Below the pieces are notes generated by a model, which was given only the letters and a program-made list of their open reading frames with translations, made no database searches and was not told the DNA's origin. Shown in pieces: positions 6,407 through 61,640 of a stretch of DNA of 64,000 nt (within the stretch, counting starts at the first letter, position 1; each line of letters starts with the position of its first letter). The stretch is from Escherichia coli (lineage in GTDB: Bacteria > Pseudomonadota > Gammaproteobacteria > Enterobacterales > Enterobacteriaceae), in NCBI RefSeq assembly GCF_003991155.1, contig NZ_CP031293.1; one strand, 5' to 3'. The position numbers were made by a program, and so were the translations under genes.

Positions 6407-7624
6407 TTACCTCGTAATATTTAACGCTTTTCGCAAAATAAACGGACAGACGATTAAAAATGCATATTCCGGGCTAAATATCGAACCGGTAAAAAACAGC
6501 GATACCGGAGTAAAAAGATATAATTGCACGCGAAAATTGCGGTTATCACCAAAAGCGTTGATCATCATTTTTATCACTTTCCCCATGTACCACAGCGATA
6601 AAAACACTGCGAACCAGGAAAAATAAATAATCAGCAGATACAAACCATTGTCTATGGTTTTTCCGACATCCGCACCGTTAAATATTCCGAATGATGCGAC
6701 ATATTCATAAAGTGAGCCAAATCTGACTACACCGTCAATATGGGTCAAAGAATAACCGACCATCACCAGCGGACCGACAATACGATAATACGATGACGAA
6801 CCTTCCGTGCCTAAATCACCCAGACGGGTGGAAATATAAGGAAACGCGATTACCACACCAACCAGGAATACAGCCAGAGAAACCAATGCTAACGGTAACT
6901 TTTTCTTAATCGCCTCTTTATTCAGATATTGAAATGCCCACTCCAGCAAATAAAAAAGGATAAAGGTCATAACCCCTGAAAACGATCCGGATAATATTAT
7001 CCCTGCGAGAATCATAGCATCGGTTTTAGGCGTTTTGATACCAAACTGTTTGATGCTGAGCCAAATTGAGATTAATGCCAGAGCGAAAAATGCCGGTTCG
7101 AAATAAAGTGCTGTCGTGCGCTTGCCGCCGAATTTAATGAAATTCAGCACATAGCTGTTGCTGTAAATCAGATATTTCGAAATCGACTCCATAATACTGC
7201 TACCGCCGGTGAGGATAATTTGCGCCATCTCCACCGCCGCCAGCGCCACCACCAGCCCGACCACCAGATAAAAGAAACGTAATATCTTGCGATGGTTGTG
7301 TGGCGAAATTGTTTTAAAACGAATACTCCACACCATGCCAATAATGATCACAATATAGACAAACAGCATGGTTGAAGTGACGTATTTACTGGCATCCAAC
7401 GACTGACCAAACAGGTAGTTAAACGCCGTGAGTCCCGCACCAACCCCTAAGGCAATCATCAATTTTTTAACGTTGATGCGCTCTAAAAACAGCAGTAACA
7501 AGACGGGTAAAAAAGTGACGATGGTAATGGGGAAACTTTCGCCAAGCTGGGCGATTTTGACGTTAACCAGCAGGTAAATCAGCGGCAGCAGTAGGTAGCT
7601 ACAGATTCTGATAGAAGTTGACAT
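6407..7624 (-). CDS. wcaD: colanic acid polymerase (multi-TM)
   Basis: ORF-track entry is N-extended; start trimmed to [15 protein letters not shown]...; highly hydrophobic polytopic protein. Confidence 0.85.
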
Positions 7625-8816
7625 ACTCCTCCAGCATCTGTTGTCCACTGTAGGCGGCGCGGCTGCGTTGGCTAAACCCAGCCAGCGTGGTACCAAATAT
7701 CGCCTGCGCGATTTCCGGTTTGCTTAACTGCACCAGTTGCAGCACGTCTTCTTCGCTGACGGTTTTACCGCCGGATTTTTGCAGAACTTCCCGCGCCGCG
7801 TCGCTATGGGTGGCAATCACCGGCACGCCAATCGATAGCGCCTCACACAAAATCAGCGGGTAGTTATCGACGCGAGAACTGAATACCAGCGCATCCATCT
7901 GATTGAGCGCGCTCATCAACTTGCGCTTGTCAGTTTCAAAGCCGTGATTAACCACGTTGCCAGCGGTGAACGGCGAGAACTTACCAAAGGTATGCAGTTC
8001 AATTTTGTCGCCCAGCGCCATCATCTCACGTACCAGTTGCTGGTTAGTTTTGCCGTCGTAACGCAGATCATGCGCCACCACCGCGATTTTCGGCTTGTCC
8101 TGGGTTTCGCGCACCGGAGGCAAGTCCGCCAGAATCGCTTCGGTTGCCATATCAATACCGTTATTGATAATCCGGCAACGCCCTGGACCGTACAGACTAT
8201 TGAAAGCATCAGCCACATGCTGGCTGGGGGAAATAAACTGACAGCCCAGTGCCAGCATCTCGCGGAATAACTGGCGTTTACCCGCCACCAGCTGGTGCGC
8301 GCGATCAATCTTCACCGGTGGATAGTTATTTAAGGTCGGGCATTTCTGGCAGCCCGTTTTCCAGCCTTCGCAACCGTCGGTAAAGGCGCAGCGTCCGGTA
8401 ACGCTCCAGTGATCGTGTAACGTCCAGACCAGAGTGATATCCGGTTTATGGTTTTTCACTTTTTCGCAAAAGCGCACCACGCTCTTAAGATTCAACCAGT
8501 AGCTGTGCAGCACATGAAAATGCAGGACCACCGGACCCGGTGTGCGAGTAATGGTGCGATATAACTCATTGAAATTGCCGAACAGATCGCGATTAAACAG
8601 ACGAAACAACGCAATGTTCGCCATCGCGGTCATCCGCGGCGTATGTTTGATGACCTGCGGATAGTTTTGATGACTGACGCTCTCTTTGCCGCCTTTGCCG
8701 TAGCCGTAGACAAAATGTGACGCCAGCCCCTGTTGCAGCGCGCGCTGGTGGAGATCTAACGCCACACCTGCTGCCCCGCCTTCCGCCAGTCGCACATTGA
8801 ATTGCAGAATATTCAT
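7599..8816 (-). CDS. wcaC: colanic acid biosynthesis glycosyltransferase
   Basis: 405-aa ORF MNILQFNVRLAEGGAAGVALDLHQRA..., GT-B family. Confidence 0.9.
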   Translation of the reverse strand: MNILQFNVRLAEGGAAGVALDLHQRALQQGLASHFVYGYGKGGKESVSHQNYPQVIKHTPRMTAMANIALFRLFNRDLFGNFNELYRTITRTPGPVVLHFHVLHSYWLNLKSVVRFCEKVKNHKPDITLVWTLHDHWSVTGRCAFTDGCEGWKTGCQKCPTLNNYPPVKIDRAHQLVAGKRQLFREMLALGCQFISPSQHVADAFNSLYGPGRCRIINNGIDMATEAILADLPPVRETQDKPKIAVVAHDLRYDGKTNQQLVREMMALGDKIELHTFGKFSPFTAGNVVNHGFETDKRKLMSALNQMDALVFSSRVDNYPLILCEALSIGVPVIATHSDAAREVLQKSGGKTVSEEDVLQLVQLSKPEIAQAIFGTTLAGFSQRSRAAYSGQQMLEEYVNFYQNL

Positions 8817-53701: not shown

Positions 53702-54754
53702 TCAGGCGATAGTAATTTTGCTATCGAGATAAACGTCCTGCACGGCGTTAATCAGTTTCACGCCGTCAGCCATCGATTTCTTGAACGCCTTACGTCCAAG
53801 AATCAGCCCCATTCCGCCAGCGCGTTTGTTGATAACCGCAGTACGCACTGCATCGCTGAGGTCAGTTTCACCGCCCGCAGCACCGCCGGAGTTTATCAAC
53901 CCAGCCCGGCCCATATAGCAGTTAGCTAACTGATAACGCACCAGATCAATCGGGTTTTCGCTGGTCAATTTGCTGTAAACACGATCGTCGGTATAACCGT
54001 AATTAATCGCTTTATAGCCGCCGTTATTTTCCGCCATTTTTTGTTTGACGATATCCGCACCTATGGTCGCCGCCAGATGGTTCGCCTGACCAGTCAGGTC
54101 GGCGGAAACATGGTAATCAACGCCATCTTTCTTAAAGGCGGAGTTACGCAAATAGGCCCACAGCACTGTCACCATGCCCAGCTCGTGCGCACGTTCAAAA
54201 GCCGCAGAAATTTCTTCAATCTGGCGACGTGACTCTTCCGAGCCAAAATAGATAGTCGCACCAACCGCCACCGCGCCCATATTGAACGCCTGCTCCACGC
54301 TGGCATACAGCGTTTGATCGTAGGTATTCGGGTAACTTAGCGTCTCGTTGTGATTAAGTTTGACGAGGAATGGAATGCGATGCGCGTAACGCCGCGATAC
54401 CGATGCCAGCACGCCGTAAGTTGACGCCACACAGTTACAGCCCGCTTCGATCGCCAGTTCAACAATGTTTTTCGGGTCAAAGTAGAGCGGGTTAGCGGCA
54501 AATGAAGCTCCGGCAGAGTGCTCAACGCCCTGGTCAACCGGCAGAATAGAAAGATATCCTGTGCCAGCCAGACGCCCGGTGTTGTACAACGTCTGCATAT
54601 TACGTAACACCGCTGGCGGGCGATTATTGTCAATCATCACGCGGTCTACGTAGTCATGTCCGGGGAGATAAAGCTGGTCAGAAGGAATAGTCATACAACG
54701 GTGCTGTAAAAGGTTGTCGGCGTCTTTGCCAAGCAACTGCGCAATATCTGTCAT
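53702..54754 (-). CDS. fbaB: fructose-bisphosphate aldolase class I
   Basis: ORF-track entry trimmed to [20 protein letters not shown]... (350 aa). Confidence 0.92.
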
Positions 54755-55010
54755 TACTATGCTCCCGTAAATTCCGATTGGATATCGGCTATGGATTGTC
54801 CTGGCCCGCCTTTTGCGGGCAATCATAATCCTGGTCGTTACGGGCGAGTTTTTCCATCTTTTGGATGTTTTTTCAGCGTTTTCTGTTGGCTCGATTCATC
54901 AGAAAAAATGTTACAGCGGTCAAGCTTTCACCGCAAAGGTATTTAAAAGGTATTATTAAGTGGTATTGTCATCGCGTACCTTACATTACCTGTCATGAAG
55001 GAATTAAAAG

Positions 55011-56288
55011 ATGAAAACAACAGCAAAGCTGTCGTTCATGATGTTTGTTGAATGGTTTATCTGGGGCGCGTGGTTTGTGCCATTGTGGTTGTGGTTAAGT
55101 AAAAGCGGTTTTAGTGCCGGAGAAATTGGCTGGTCGTATGCCTGTACCGCCATTGCGGCGATCCTGTCGCCGATTCTGGTTGGCTCCATCACTGACCGCT
55201 TTTTCTCGGCACAGAAAGTGCTGGCGGTATTGATGTTCGCTGGTGCGGTGCTGATGTATTTCGCCGCGCAACAGACCACTTTTGCCGGGTTCTTCCCGTT
55301 ACTGCTGGCCTACTCGCTAACCTATATGCCGACCATTGCGCTGACTAACAGTATCGCTTTTGCCAACGTGCCGGATGTGGAGCGTGATTTCCCGCGCATT
55401 CGTGTGATGGGGACTATCGGCTGGATTGCCTCTGGTCTGGCATGTGGATTCTTGCCGCAAATGCTGGGTTATGCCGATATCTCACCGACGAACATCCCGC
55501 TGCTGATTACTGCCGGAAGTTCTGCTCTGCTTGGTGTGTTTGCGTTTTTTCTGCCCGACACGCCACCAAAAAGCACCGGCAAAATGGATATTAAAGTCAT
55601 GCTCGGCCTGGATGCGCTGATCCTGCTGCGCGATAAGAACTTCCTCGTCTTTTTCTTCTGTTCATTCCTGTTTGCGATGCCACTGGCGTTCTATTACATC
55701 TTTGCCAACGGTTATCTGACCGAAGTTGGCATGAAAAACGCCACTGGCTGGATGACGCTCGGCCAGTTCTCTGAAATCTTCTTTATGCTGGCATTGCCGT
55801 TTTTCACTAAACGCTTTGGTATCAAAAAGGTATTGTTGCTTGGTCTGGTCACCGCTGCGATCCGCTATGGCTTCTTTATTTACGGTAGTGCGGATGAATA
55901 TTTCACCTACGCGTTACTGTTCCTCGGTATTTTGCTGCACGGCGTAAGTTACGATTTTTACTACGTTACCGCATACATCTATGTCGATAAAAAAGCCCCC
56001 GTGCATATGCGTACCGCCGCGCAGGGGCTGATCACGCTCTGCTGCCAGGGCTTCGGCAGTTTGCTCGGCTATCGTCTTGGCGGTGTGATGATGGAAAAGA
56101 TGTTCGCTTATCAGGAACCGGTAAACGGACTGACTTTCAACTGGGCCGGGATGTGGACTTTCGGCGCGGTGATGATTGCCATTATCGCCGTGCTGTTCAT
56201 GATTTTTTTCCGCGAATCCGACAACGAAATTACGGCTATCAAGGTCGATGATCGCGATATTGCGTTGACACAAGGGGAAGTTAAATGA
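55011..56288 (+). CDS. yegT: nucleoside:H+ symporter family MFS transporter
   Basis: 425-aa 12-TM ORF; ATG with gaaggaa SD. Confidence 0.88.
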   Translation: MKTTAKLSFMMFVEWFIWGAWFVPLWLWLSKSGFSAGEIGWSYACTAIAAILSPILVGSITDRFFSAQKVLAVLMFAGAVLMYFAAQQTTFAGFFPLLLAYSLTYMPTIALTNSIAFANVPDVERDFPRIRVMGTIGWIASGLACGFLPQMLGYADISPTNIPLLITAGSSALLGVFAFFLPDTPPKSTGKMDIKVMLGLDALILLRDKNFLVFFFCSFLFAMPLAFYYIFANGYLTEVGMKNATGWMTLGQFSEIFFMLALPFFTKRFGIKKVLLLGLVTAAIRYGFFIYGSADEYFTYALLFLGILLHGVSYDFYYVTAYIYVDKKAPVHMRTAAQGLITLCCQGFGSLLGYRLGGVMMEKMFAYQEPVNGLTFNWAGMWTFGAVMIAIIAVLFMIFFRESDNEITAIKVDDRDIALTQGEVK

Positions 56289-57289
56289 AAACAGAACGTA
56301 TTCTCGGTGCTCTTTATGGGCAGGCGTTAGGGGATGCGATGGGGATGCCCTCCGAGCTTTGGCCACGCAGCCGCGTTAAAGCACACTTTGGCTGGATTGA
56401 CCATTTTCTGCCTGGACCAAAGGAGAATAACGCAGCCTGTTATTTTAACCGCGCCGAATTCACCGACGATACCTCGATGGCGCTGTGTCTGGCGGATGCG
56501 TTACTGGAACGTGAAGGCGAGATCGATCCGGATCTGATTGGGCGTAATATTCTCGACTGGGCGCTGCGTTTCGACGCCTTTAACAAAAACGTACTAGGTC
56601 CGACCTCGAAGATTGCGCTTAACGCCATTCGCGACGGTAAACCCGTTGCTGAACTGGAAAATAACGGCGTGACCAACGGCGCAGCGATGCGCGTCTCGCC
56701 ATTAGGTTGTTTGCTTCCGGCGCGTGATGTTGATTCCTTTATTGATGATGTGGCGCTGGCCTCCAGCCCGACCCATAAATCCGATCTGGCAGTTGCAGGT
56801 GCGGTAGTCATCGCATGGGCGATTTCTCGTGCCATTGACGGAGAAAGCTGGTCAGCGATTGTTGATTCACTGCCTTCAATTGCGCGACATGCACAGCAAA
56901 AACGCATCACTACCTTCAGCGCCTCACTGGCAGCACGTCTGGAGATTGCGCTGAAAATTGTGCGCAATGCCGACGGCACCGAATCCGCCAGCGAACAGCT
57001 GTATCAGGTCGTTGGCGCAGGTACCAGCACTATTGAGTCCGTTCCGTGCGCCATTGCGCTGGTTGAACTGGCACAAACCGACCCGAATCGCTGCGCCGTC
57101 CTGTGCGCTAACCTTGGCGGCGACACAGACACCATAGGTGCTATGGCGACGGCAATTTGCGGCGCGTTGCATGGCGTTAACGCTATCGATCCTGCGTTAA
57201 AGGCGGAACTGGATGCGGTAAATCAGCTTGATTTCAACCGCTATGCCACAGCGCTGGCGAAGTATCGCCAACAACGGGAGGCGGTATGA
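56285..57289 (+). CDS. yegU: ADP-ribosylglycohydrolase-family protein
   Basis: 334-aa ORF; start overlaps yegT stop (ATGA). Confidence 0.85.
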   Translation: MKTERILGALYGQALGDAMGMPSELWPRSRVKAHFGWIDHFLPGPKENNAACYFNRAEFTDDTSMALCLADALLEREGEIDPDLIGRNILDWALRFDAFNKNVLGPTSKIALNAIRDGKPVAELENNGVTNGAAMRVSPLGCLLPARDVDSFIDDVALASSPTHKSDLAVAGAVVIAWAISRAIDGESWSAIVDSLPSIARHAQQKRITTFSASLAARLEIALKIVRNADGTESASEQLYQVVGAGTSTIESVPCAIALVELAQTDPNRCAVLCANLGGDTDTIGAMATAICGALHGVNAIDPALKAELDAVNQLDFNRYATALAKYRQQREAV

Positions 57290-58251
57290 GCAGCGCTCGA
57301 TTACACACGCTGCTGCCTGAATTAACCACGCGTCAGCCAGTGATGGTCGTCGGCGCGGCGGTCATTGATGTGATCGCCGACGCTTATGCCCTCCCCTGGC
57401 GTGGGTGCGATATCGAACTGAAACAGCAGAGCGTTAACGTTGGCGGCTGTGCACTGAATATTGCCGTGGCATTAAAGCGCCTCGGCATCGAAGCGGGTAA
57501 TGCCTTGCCGCTCGGTCAGGGGGTGTGGGCGGAGATTATTCGCAACCGGATGGCAAAAGAGGACTTAATCAGCCTGATCGATAACGCCGAAGGTGATAAC
57601 GGCTGGTGTCTGGCGCTGGTTGAGCCGGATGGCGAACGCACTTTTATGTCATTCAGCGGTGTGGAAAATCAGTGGAATCGCCAATGGCTGGCACGATTAA
57701 CCGTTGCGCCTGGCAGCCTGCTCTATTTTTCCGGTTATCAACTGGCCTCGCCCTGCGGCGAATTGTTAGTGGAATGGCTGGAAGAGCTGCAAGACGTGAC
57801 GCCATTTATCGATTTTGGCCCACGTATTGGCGATATCCCGGATGCATTACTGGCGCGGATCATGGCCTGTCGACCTTTAGTGTCACTCAATCGTCAAGAG
57901 GCTGAGATTGCCGCCGAACGTTTTGCTCTATCCGCAGAGATAACAACACTAGGCAAGCAATGGCAGGAGAAATTTGCCGCGCCGTTGATCGTTCGTCTCG
58001 ATAAAGAGGGCGCATGGTATTTCAGCAACGACGCTTCTGGCTGCATTCCGGCATTTCCAACGCAAGTTGTAGACACCATTGGGGCGGGCGACAGTCATGC
58101 CGGCGGCGTACTTGCCGGGCTGGCCTCTGGTCTGCCACTGGCGGATGCCGTATTACTGGGCAATGCAGTGGCGTCGTGGGTTGTCGGGCATCGGGGCGGT
58201 GATTGTGCGCCAACGCGCGAGGAACTACTCCTCGCACACAAAAACGTATAG
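57286..58251 (+). CDS. yegV: PfkB-family carbohydrate/nucleoside kinase
   Basis: 321-aa ORF; C-terminal GAGD motif (DTIGAGDSHAGG); start overlaps yegU stop. Confidence 0.85.
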   Translation: MSSARLHTLLPELTTRQPVMVVGAAVIDVIADAYALPWRGCDIELKQQSVNVGGCALNIAVALKRLGIEAGNALPLGQGVWAEIIRNRMAKEDLISLIDNAEGDNGWCLALVEPDGERTFMSFSGVENQWNRQWLARLTVAPGSLLYFSGYQLASPCGELLVEWLEELQDVTPFIDFGPRIGDIPDALLARIMACRPLVSLNRQEAEIAAERFALSAEITTLGKQWQEKFAAPLIVRLDKEGAWYFSNDASGCIPAFPTQVVDTIGAGDSHAGGVLAGLASGLPLADAVLLGNAVASWVVGHRGGDCAPTREELLLAHKNV

Positions 58252-58971
58252 ATCGCTGCGACAGTGGCTGATGCTGTACTCAATAGGCCGTTGCTGTTGG
58301 TCAAGCGCCACTTGCTTGATCACCAGCACCGGTATTTTGCTATCTAACTGAATATGTGACTGAAACTCGGCATCCGGCATCCGGGCGCTAACGCGGGAAC
58401 GCGTACGTTGTGGGTAAATGTGCTGGCTGCGGAAGTAGTCATAAAGAGAAATCCCGATGGCATCAACATCATGAATTAAATGTGCCGGAACCCACGATTC
58501 CTCAATCGATACCGCTTCTTCATCGACATAGCGAATACGCTTAAGCAAAAAGACATCACTTCCCGCTTCGACCGCCAGCTGCTGCGCAACTTCTTCGGGA
58601 CATTTCACGACACGCTTGTTAACCCATAGCGTATCGGGCTTTTTCCCGCGCAATACCACCTGCTGAGAAAAACCTCGCGCTTCTTTCAACGAGTATTCGA
58701 AGATGTTGTTGATCTGCGTACCGTAACCACGCGAACGCGTCACCACGCCCTCTTCTTCCAGCGCCTGCATCGCCTTGCGCACCGTAATGCGCGAAACGCC
58801 GGTTAACTGACTTAAATCACGCTCACCGGGCAAAATATTGCCATGCTCCAGCACCCCGCTGCGCACGGCATTTTTTACCGTTTCGGCAAACTTAATATAA
58901 AGCGGCGTGTTATCCGCCGCTAAAATACGTTCGTTCAGTTGGGCAATCAGCTGGGTATGCGCTTGTTCCAT
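58225..58971 (-). CDS. yegW: GntR/HutC-family transcriptional regulator
   Basis: 248-aa ORF; N-terminal GntR HTH (LPGERDLSQLTGVSRITVRKAM), UTRA-like C-domain; 27-nt convergent overlap with yegV. Confidence 0.88.
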   Translation of the reverse strand: MEQAHTQLIAQLNERILAADNTPLYIKFAETVKNAVRSGVLEHGNILPGERDLSQLTGVSRITVRKAMQALEEEGVVTRSRGYGTQINNIFEYSLKEARGFSQQVVLRGKKPDTLWVNKRVVKCPEEVAQQLAVEAGSDVFLLKRIRYVDEEAVSIEESWVPAHLIHDVDAIGISLYDYFRSQHIYPQRTRSRVSARMPDAEFQSHIQLDSKIPVLVIKQVALDQQQRPIEYSISHCRSDLYVFVCEE

Positions 58972-59022: not shown

Positions 59023-59841
59023 TTAAGGCGTTTCTTTAATCCCATCAACGAATCCCTGCAACTCCTCCTCTGTGCCATTAAACACATTAAAATCCACCGG
59101 ACCATTAATGCCATCTACCTGCCCACGGTCGGAATGCTGCCAGAAGCGCCAGGCCATGCCGTCATTGTCCGGACGACGTTGATAGTAGTGAGCCACCCAC
59201 CACGGATATTCATTGAAATAGCCCGCCAGATTCGTGTGATAAAAAACGGCTCCTGAGTAAATAATCGGCTTTTTCCCCGTACTTTTTTCGACCATTTTTA
59301 GCCACTGACTTACCCGCTTGCGTAATTCTTTTGCCGATAATTTTCCCCGTTCTTCTACGTCCAGCACGGCAGGGAAATCGCCTTGTGAGAAATCCACCGT
59401 TTGCAGAAATAATCTCGCCTGAACTGAAGCGGATACCGACGGGGAAAAATAATGATACGCCCCGCGCAGCAGGCCATTTTCGCGGCTTAGTTGCCAGTTA
59501 CGCGAAAAATAGGGGTCCACCAGCTTTTCGCCTTCCGTCGCCTTAATAAAGGCAAATTGTAAGCGAATACCGTTATCGCGCATTTTTGCCACCCGCTGCC
59601 AGTCGATTCGCTCCTGCCAGCGTGAAACATCAATACCATGAATGGTGTAACTGGCAGGAATGCGAATAGCAAAAGATTTGACCGGGCGATAACCGTAGAA
59701 GTGGATGTAGTCTTTAATCTGAATTGCTGTCGAATAGAAAAAATTCACCGTCTGACGCGGATAAATTGCAACGATGGAAATTAGCCCAAGAGCGCATAAT
59801 AAAGCGGTGAATTTTTTTCGACTGGTGATTCTCAGCTGCAT
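59023..59841 (-). CDS. yegX: glycoside hydrolase family 25 (lysozyme-like) protein
   Basis: Start trimmed to MQLRITSRKKFTALLCALGLISIV...; GH25 motifs (HGIDVSRWQ). Confidence 0.85.
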   Translation of the reverse strand: MQLRITSRKKFTALLCALGLISIVAIYPRQTVNFFYSTAIQIKDYIHFYGYRPVKSFAIRIPASYTIHGIDVSRWQERIDWQRVAKMRDNGIRLQFAFIKATEGEKLVDPYFSRNWQLSRENGLLRGAYHYFSPSVSASVQARLFLQTVDFSQGDFPAVLDVEERGKLSAKELRKRVSQWLKMVEKSTGKKPIIYSGAVFYHTNLAGYFNEYPWWVAHYYQRRPDNDGMAWRFWQHSDRGQVDGINGPVDFNVFNGTEEELQGFVDGIKETP

Positions 59842-59905
59842 TGGTTTCATCCCTGAATGTCAGCGCCAAAGGCTGACAATAACCAAAGCAGCTATAGTAC
59901 GGTGC

Positions 59906-61491: not shown

Positions 61492-61640
61492 AGTTTGCTC
61501 CTGCCATAACGTGAAGAAGCAATGACCTGGTGGTCCGTGACTTCCCTACGCTGGCATTATCCAGATCAGGTGATACGGGTATTTCTCAGCCTTCACGCAG
61601 AAGGGCACCCCGAGTCGTTTGGTTGAATCTCTATATTTTG
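61492..61640 (-). promoter_or_regulatory. TPP (thi-box) riboswitch in thiM leader
   Basis: Minus-strand leader contains GGGGUGCCCUUCUGCGUGAAGGCUGAGAAAUACCCGUAUCACCUGAUCUGGAUAAUGCCAGCGUAGGGAAGUCACGG... with CUGAGA thi-box and SD-sequestering stem. Confidence 0.85.

Follow-up and report, generated by a model that had tools for sequence, protein, structure and literature searches.

The subject of this analysis is the yegTUV operon of Escherichia coli together with its convergent regulator gene yegW (ggaR), which occupy positions 55011–58971 of a 64,000-nt window (the whole stretch of DNA analysed) from contig NZ_CP031293.1. Three products are predicted from the operon: a permease, a hydrolase of the ADP-ribosylglycohydrolase (ARH) fold, and a PfkB-type kinase. 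We propose, at a probability of about 0.45, that yegTUV is a self-contained salvage or catabolic module for a non-canonical riboside, which would be imported by YegT, phosphorylated at its 5′ position by YegV, and hydrolyzed by YegU.

Gene organization and protein products

The open reading frames (ORFs) detected in the region were exactly those of an earlier, sequence-only reading of the window, and the RefSeq record of a 100% identical genome lists the same four genes with the same products (Table 1). ORF coordinates and RefSeq thus confirm that the three plus-strand genes are joined by ATGA start/stop overlaps, at 56285–56288 and 57286–57289. Each overlap is preceded by a Shine-Dalgarno-like run located within the upstream gene, AAGGGGAA at 56272–56279 in the case of yegU, and GGGAGG at 57276–57281 in the case of yegV. 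The convergence of yegW on the operon was also read correctly: the 27-nt overlap of coding regions is set by the yegV TAG codon at 58249–58251 and the yegW stop at 58225–58227 on the minus strand. The 4-nt and 27-nt overlaps are also found in Salmonella, Citrobacter, Kluyvera, Klebsiella, and Pectobacterium and, because they recur across these genera, the arrangement is, judging from the sequences compared, not a product of chance. The 27-nt overlap is specific to Enterobacteriaceae and Pectobacterium, being 4 nt long in Tatumella and absent from Budvicia, while in Vibrio yegW is co-directional with the operon. The window is chromosomal E. coli DNA; several complete genomes match a 5.3-kb stretch around the locus at 100% identity, and this stretch is found in 5424 of 5426 complete E. 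coli genomes. Co-transcription, which the sequence-only reading had left open, has been published: a Northern blot revealed a single 3.3-kb yegTUV mRNA, visible only upon yegW deletion (PMC10819704).

Table 1. Positions of genes and of known or predicted control features at the yegTUV locus (window coordinates).
Feature	Positions	Strand	Description
yegT	55011–56288	+	425 aa, NHS-family permease
yegU	56285–57289	+	334 aa, predicted ARH-fold (DraG/ARH3-like) metal-dependent glycohydrolase
yegV	57286–58251	+	321 aa, PfkB (ribokinase-fold) kinase
yegW (ggaR)	58225–58971	−	248 aa, GntR/HutC-type repressor of yegTUV
yegV/yegW convergent 3′ overlap	58225–58251		27 nt of coding regions
fbaB/yegT divergent spacer with yegTUV control region	54755–55010		RefSeq fbaB start at 54754
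σ70-like promoter candidate, TTCACC-18 nt-TATTAT	54927–54956	+	consensus scan, 9/12 matches; prediction
Candidate operator of GgaR, with GGTAT(T) half-sites repeated directly at 54938, 54949, and 54962	54938–54966	+	motif search
GTACC at 54976 and TTACC at 54986, inverted relative to GGTAT	54976–54990	+	possible further half-sites; invariant in five genera
Second GGTAT-N6-GGTAT	55818–55833	+	candidate weak auxiliary operator inside yegT, ORF nt 808–823

The family assignments made previously, to a nucleoside:H+ symporter (NHS) homologue, an ADP-ribosylglycohydrolase-family enzyme, and a ribokinase-like kinase, all held, with scores of 611 bits for YegT against PF03825, 224 bits for YegU against PF03747, and 189 bits for YegV against PF00294. 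In the case of YegT, the match spans residues 1–405 and the full length of the family profile, and the score against TIGR00889 (653 bits) is well above the cutoff of 446. YegT matches PDB entry 8ZOJ, which is YegT itself, from end to end (E 1.9e-281); this crystal structure, determined at 3.1 Å, shows a major facilitator superfamily fold of 12 transmembrane helices with a GXXXD protonation site (PMC11979927). Residues that contact ribose in NupG are kept in YegT, and those that contact the base are not (PMC8042404). Uptake assays with YegT detected no transport of uridine, cytidine, xanthosine, or gemcitabine (PMC11241209).

YegU scored far below the equivalog cutoffs of both DraG (TIGR02662, 80 versus 337 bits) and Tri1 (NF041672, 69 versus 490 bits), and YegV far below that of ribokinase (TIGR02152, 81 bits; cutoff 300). 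Since every curated isofunctional model is missed by such a distance, both proteins belong to uncharacterised subfamilies. The AlphaFold2 model of YegU, with a predicted local distance difference test score (pLDDT) of 97.5, has an all-helical ARH fold; its top structural match is the uncharacterised protein MJ1187 (1t5j), with template-modelling scores (TM-scores) of 0.81/0.90. Query-normalised TM-scores to MJ1187, TTHA0132, DraG, and ARH3 range from 0.69 to 0.81. The YegU family profile is likewise nearest to MJ1187 (E 3e-65), followed by ARH3, DraG, TTHA0132, and Tri1 at ~1e-31. A 692-aa metagenomic representative among the closer relatives of YegU (P0164) contains two tandem ARH domains.

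Alignment with ARH3 places YegU E24 at the position of the catalytic Glu41 of the Glu flap, T60-D61-D62 at the metal ligands T76-D77-D78, and D280/D282/T283 at D314/D316/T317. D61 and D282 are invariant, and each of the remaining catalytic and metal-binding residues is shared by at least 29 of the 36 homologues. With these residues kept in a confidently modelled ARH fold, YegU is predicted to be catalytically competent. H164, also invariant, aligns with ARH3 His182, which is required for ADP-ribose binding. In ARH3, Phe143 and Tyr149 clamp the adenine; when this binding mode is compared with YegU, the two positions correspond to N127 and V129 and are variable and mostly non-aromatic in the family, and for this reason YegU probably does not hold ADP in the way ARH3 does. 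The DraG-specific Asp97 corresponds to L104 in YegU, and is Leu or Ile in 31 of 36 homologues. From its residues, YegU thus looks like an active glycohydrolase at ribose C1 that is devoid of the ARH3 mode of holding ADP.

The characterised ARH enzymes all remove ADP-ribose from macromolecules or from small ADP-ribose esters, and this precedent, together with Pfam ARH membership and a complete catalytic site, is what could be cited for YegU being a conventional de-ADP-ribosylase that acts on protein or nucleic acid, for example in reversing a toxin or phage modification, with its place in the operon being incidental. We regard this as very improbable. Besides scoring so far under the DraG and Tri1 cutoffs and lacking both the ARH3 adenine-stacking residues and DraG Asp97, YegU is translationally coupled within a transporter–kinase operon, and no ADP-ribosyltransferase gene was seen in its neighbourhood. 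The fusions to PfkB domains in both orders and the cross-phylum linkage to small-molecule carriers that are described below also speak against it.

Conserved cassettes and the proposed order of reactions

The genomic context of YegU was studied in a set of 84 loci, 80 of which were collected, one genome per species, with a profile of 36 YegU homologues, and four by exact look-ups; the ORFs of all loci were called and clustered in this analysis. A YegV-like gene adjoins the YegU-like gene in 65 of the 84 loci, from Proteobacteria, Firmicutes, and other phyla, and a YegW-like HutC regulator is present in 57. The transporter is exchanged between lineages. A YegT-type NHS transporter was found in 37 loci, all of them from Proteobacteria. 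In 18 loci, including those of Aeromonas, Chromobacterium, Bacillaceae, Dialister, Sutterella, and Lactobacillaceae, the U-V pair contains or adjoins an NCS1 permease gene (PF02133), while in 15 loci from Clostridia and Lachnospiraceae the YegV gene is followed by a carrier of the PnuC family (PF04973; TIGR01528 score 150 bits, cutoff 42), and YegV is the sole kinase of these PnuC-type cassettes. Within the top-ranking YegU-family representatives, the two enzymes also occur as single-protein fusions in both orders, PfkB-ARH and ARH-PfkB, mostly in metagenomic sequences and once in Arsenicicoccus. No recurrent fourth enzyme (deaminase, phosphatase, isomerase, and the like) was found in 55 non-enterobacterial cassettes. 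The yegTUV type is therefore a minimal module consisting of a carrier, an ARH-fold hydrolase, and a PfkB kinase.

Several neighbours of the cassettes occur in isolation and do not recur, among them genes for an esterase, a 2-hydroxyacid dehydrogenase, and a GMP-reductase-like protein. A gene of the GMP-reductase/IMPDH family lies directly upstream of YegU-YegV-PnuC on the same strand in Gemelliphila asaccharolytica (locus L049, 5925–6908), a single case that gives a faint hint of a purine connection. In Sutterella and Parasutterella (L062 and L063, 2850–6700), a complete ABC importer precedes YegU-YegV-NCS1, so that two uptake systems are present. The importer comprises a binding protein of the SBP_bac_6/8 type, a double permease in fused form, and an ATPase that carries a TOBE domain.

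All carriers of the cassettes belong to families that are known to handle nucleosides, vitamins of the riboside type, or bases. Because the carriers are of the NHS, NCS1, or PnuC type, and because YegT keeps the ribose contacts of NupG and not its base contacts, a riboside-type cargo is indicated. The fusions and the carriers strengthen the earlier suggestion that the operon serves uptake and catabolism of a ribose-linked compound. The accompanying proposal that this compound derives from ADP-ribose is neither shown nor excluded; the metal site is kept, and the ARH3 adenine-stacking residues are lacking.

YegV has the hallmarks of PfkB kinases, a GAGD anion-hole motif with the catalytic Asp269 and an NXXE motif (N202/E205). 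The ribofuranose-binding and catalytic residues D28, G53-G54, N58, N202/E205, and D269 are invariant in 59 family sequences; the counterparts in E. coli ribokinase are D16, G41-G42, N46, and D255. A different picture is seen at N14, K43, and E143, which reportedly contact ribose in the ribokinase–ribose structure of Sigrell (1998). N14 is replaced by V26 in YegV (V, F, M, or I in the family), K43 by C55 (Cys in 57 of 59 members), and E143 by A154 (A, E, or S). Further gains of the family are N105, which is invariant, an aromatic side chain at position 107, and F120. Judged by these residues, the YegV active site appears better suited to phosphorylating a riboside than ribose. YegV was still classed as an uncharacterised sugar kinase in 2025, and no enzyme activity of YegU or YegV has been reported in the literature that could be searched.

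The order in which the kinase would act before the hydrolase is suggested by several lines of evidence. One is the residue pattern of YegV, together with its failure to reach the ribokinase cutoff. Another comes from the PnuC-type cassettes: PnuC-type carriers are facilitators whose cargo is trapped by a kinase, as in the PnuC-NadR pair, and YegV is the only kinase that could do so there. A third is that, in the known substrates of ARH enzymes, the ribose that is cleaved has its 5″-OH esterified with phosphate, and that YegU His164 is invariant. Finally, psuK and psuG provide a precedent. In the scheme that follows from this order, YegT would import the riboside with a proton, YegV would phosphorylate its 5′-OH and thereby trap it in the cell, and YegU, as a binuclear-metal glycohydrolase, would cut the ribose C1 bond, yielding a free aglycone and ribose-5-phosphate, the latter entering the pentose-phosphate pathway. 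The order of the two steps, the product, and the nature of the substrate are all deduced indirectly. Candidate substrates are alpha-linked or otherwise unusual ribosides (pyridinium, benzimidazole), modified nucleosides, and fragments of ADP-ribosylated molecules.

Several observations weigh against this scheme. Four loci from Hafnia, Edwardsiella, and Serratia contain YegU and YegW only, with neither YegV nor a transporter, which suggests that the hydrolase can act without a dedicated kinase. In the Edwardsiella and Serratia loci (L034, L036, L037, and L044, ~6900–8800), the YegU-like (~65% identity) and YegW-like (37–40%) genes are located between phoPQ-like genes and purB-hflD. In PnuC-type cassettes, hydrolysis alone could also trap the cargo. 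ARH1 and ARH3 require the cis 2″,3″-OH groups of ribose and select alpha-1″ linkages; ordinary nucleosides are beta, and the substrate class is therefore uncertain. The only effector tried on the regulator is ADP-glucose, with glucose and ADP as controls (PMC10819704); ADP-glucose is no simple 5′-phosphoriboside, and the published phenotypes concern glycogen and not nucleoside use (PMC10819704, PMC6195507).

The loci that lack YegV are easier to explain if YegU acts directly on the imported compound, cleaving the riboside to ribose and aglycone, with YegV, as a dedicated ribokinase paralogue, converting the ribose to ribose-5-phosphate. The nearest solved relatives of YegV, by sequence and by fold, are indeed ribokinases, the residues for the 2′,3′-OH and 5′-OH of ribose are kept, and gene content and fusions fit either order. 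This reverse order nevertheless appears less probable to us than phosphorylation first, as hydrophobic residues consistently take the place of ribokinase N14, and Cys that of K43, E143 varies, new invariant aromatic residues have appeared, and the YegV score falls so short of the ribokinase cutoff. The 5″-phosphate ester normal for ARH-family substrates also argues against it, and E. coli already possesses a ribokinase, RbsK.

A broader generalization, put forward more tentatively than the scheme of phosphorylation followed by hydrolysis, is that the YegU/MJ1187 branch of the ARH family may represent widespread small-molecule (phospho)riboside glycosidases that work with a dedicated PfkB riboside kinase and are not macromolecule de-ADP-ribosylases. 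Combined with exchangeable carriers of the NHS, NCS1, or PnuC type, hydrolase and kinase would make up a salvage route not characterised before, for a riboside that is alpha-linked or non-canonical in another way. Candidate substrates would then be alpha-ribosides released when corrinoids or NAD are broken down, or what is left of ADP-ribosylated molecules after dephosphorylation, and the link of the operon to ADP-glucose and glycogen would be a side effect.

Control by GgaR and the surroundings of the operon

YegW consists of an N-terminal GntR winged helix-turn-helix (wHTH) domain (PF00392, 59 bits) and a C-terminal UTRA domain (PF07702, 125 bits), in agreement with its previous assignment to the GntR/HutC regulators, and its nearest solved relative is YvoA/NagR. 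The protein was renamed GgaR in 2024, when the locus was studied by Saito et al. (PMC10819704). In that work, ChIP-chip revealed one genome-wide peak, in the fbaB/yegT spacer, with a weaker site in the yegT ORF (nt 571–869). Both regions were confirmed by gel shift, with the intragenic fragment binding more weakly, and the primary fragment was the spacer, 190 bp upstream of yegT. GgaR was accordingly described as a single-target repressor, whose loss derepresses yegTUV ~30-fold in RT-qPCR and whose protein level was constant under the conditions tested (PMC10819704). A yegW mutation reported elsewhere (PMC10519446) is incidental and synonymous.

Inspection of the control region revealed a candidate operator. 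The final ~80 bp before the yegT start codon are kept across five genera. The three GGTAT(T) half-sites, which overlap the spacer and the −10 element of the predicted promoter, are unchanged in these genera, while the predicted −35 element is poorly kept between genera. Within the 64-kb window there are just two occurrences of the motif GGTAT-N6-GGTAT (at 54938 and 55818), where 0.08 would be expected, and both copies fall within the two published GgaR-binding fragments. The upstream copy is present in 35 loci from E. coli to Vibrio, before yegT in 34 of them and before yegU in Brenneria; besides Vibrio and Brenneria, the genera include Budvicia, Tatumella, Rahnella, and Pectobacterium. A scan of 1.15 Mb of related loci gave 50 matches, 48 of them at the two homologous sites. 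Between the inverted elements GTACC and TTACC, E. coli has a 5-nt TTACA insertion at 54981–54985, which duplicates the neighbouring TTAC, is not present in the other four aligned genera, and alters the spacing of these putative half-sites.

The intragenic repeat covers the invariant peptide FGIKKVL, its synonymous sites drift, and 12 of 31 sequences have the motif in full, so that selection of this copy as an operator is weakly supported. The copy is probably a weak auxiliary site owed mainly to the coding sequence, which fits its lower in vitro affinity for GgaR. On the other side of the spacer, the mechanically called fbaB ORF (53702–54826, minus strand) extends 24 codons beyond the RefSeq start (374 versus 350 aa). 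Other genera also give an fbaB product of 350 aa. With the start at 54754, the fbaB/yegT spacer is therefore 256 bp long and not 184 bp.

The 3′ end of the operon may also contribute to regulation. The yegV-yegW pair is on the ExcludonFinder list of RNA-seq-supported excludons (PMC12288877), and has the layout of convergent genes with overlapping 3′ ends. Read-through from induced yegTUV via the 27-nt overlap could lower yegW expression and thus create positive feedback. A terminator scan of the locus returned 6 candidates versus 5.9 expected from shuffled background, none of them between yegV and yegW.

The effector data bear on the nature of the substrate. ADP-glucose at 10–100 μM releases GgaR from DNA in vitro, while glucose and ADP have no effect; the yegW mutant accumulates 2–3 times more glycogen, and its growth on glucose minimal medium is poor; and Saito et al. 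proposed ADP-glucose as the effector, along with a role in glycogen accumulation (PMC10819704). A yegV deletion is, moreover, glycogen-deficient on ADP-glucose medium (PMC6195507). Taken together, these results could mean that the operon handles or supplies ADP-glucose, which GgaR senses, so that derepression leads to more glycogen. We consider such a role unlikely. The effector set comprised three compounds, and the published work is without an enzyme or transport assay (PMC10819704). The PnuC and NCS1 carriers found in cassettes elsewhere are known for small ribosides, vitamins, and bases and not for a dianionic sugar nucleotide, ARH chemistry needs a ribose C1″ and cis 2″,3″-OH groups, neither of which is offered by the glucose–phosphate bond, and YegU is without the ARH3 adenine clamp. 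The glycogen effect itself could be indirect: a 30-fold excess of a nucleoside kinase and a nucleotide glycosidase may disturb the adenylate pool that controls GlgC. The comparative evidence, which comes from sequences, thus points to a riboside rather than to ADP-glucose. In the scheme of a riboside phosphorylated before hydrolysis, YegW would be freed from the promoter-overlapping GGTAT direct repeats by the phosphorylated riboside or by a compound resembling it, such as ADP-glucose. The probability that is left over after the four readings considered here belongs to something that we have not considered.

In RefSeq, the operon is flanked by gatYZABC and fbaB on one side, and by yegX, thiD, thiM, and a thiamine pyrophosphate (TPP) riboswitch on the other. 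The riboswitch (61526–61622, minus strand) is annotated in the identical RefSeq record upstream of thiM-thiD; although adjacent here, it has no linkage to the operon beyond enterobacterial loci. In E. coli, yegW and thiD are separated by yegX (59023–59850, minus strand), which encodes a GH25 muramidase-like protein (PF01183, 186 bits). In the loci of Salmonella, Citrobacter, Kluyvera, and Klebsiella michiganensis that were examined, yegX is missing from this position and thiD comes immediately after yegW, a pattern suggestive of an insertion in the Escherichia lineage only. A thiamine link, which was suggested by thiD-thiM, a weak NCS1-CytX match, the ThiBPQ-like layout of the Sutterella ABC importer, and the Pnu family, was rejected because the thiDM adjacency is seen only in enterobacterial loci and the chemistry of YegU and YegV fits no non-riboside. 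A functional linkage to fbaB was rejected as well; the adjacency is limited to 25 enterobacterial loci, and fbaB is not under GgaR control (PMC10819704).

Significance and comparison with known systems

The layout, co-transcription, and regulator of yegTUV are already published, and the sequence-only reading's description of the substrate as undefined still holds for the literature that could be searched. New here are the GGTAT-N6-GGTAT operator motif, the cross-phylum U-V cassette with its swapped carriers and fusions, and the residue arguments for kinase action followed by hydrolysis. All three genes belong to the core genome and count among the “y-genes” that E. coli still has. Identification of the substrate would give the ARH fold its first metabolic (non-signalling) role in bacteria, name a nutrient of many gut and environmental bacteria, and settle whether the link between GgaR and glycogen is direct. 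The cassettes of Lachnospiraceae, lactobacilli, and Sutterella are further settings for the same idea.

In gene content, yegTUV resembles the pseudouridine catabolic cluster psuT-psuG-psuK (yeiM-yeiN-yeiC) of E. coli, which combines a transporter, a PfkB nucleoside kinase, and a 5′-phosphoriboside glycosidase. The two systems differ in the transporter, which is of the CNT family in the psu cluster and of the NHS family in yegTUV, and in the glycosidase, which in yegTUV is predicted to have the ARH fold, while PsuG belongs to another family. YegT shares with the NHS transporters NupG and XapB the family, the fold, the GXXXD protonation site, and the ribose-contacting residues, and differs from NupG, to which it is 27% identical, in the base-contacting residues. 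YegU shares the fold, the binuclear-metal ligands, and the Glu flap with ARH1, ARH3, DraG, Tri1, and MJ1187; its genomic context is small-molecule uptake, in contrast to protein modification for the ARH/DraG family.

As to the regulator, YegW resembles the HutC-subfamily protein NagR/YvoA in its wHTH and UTRA domains and in the position of its gene beside a single target operon; NagR comes off its DNA in response to a small ligand that is phosphorylated. HutC-type regulators usually recognise one short palindrome, whereas the candidate GgaR operator consists of direct GGTAT repeats spaced 11–13 bp apart and followed by inverted (G/T)TACC elements. Saito et al. studied the same genes, and gave neither an operator sequence nor an enzyme or transport function (PMC10819704); the present analysis adds the candidate operator and the comparative evidence that favours a riboside over ADP-glucose.

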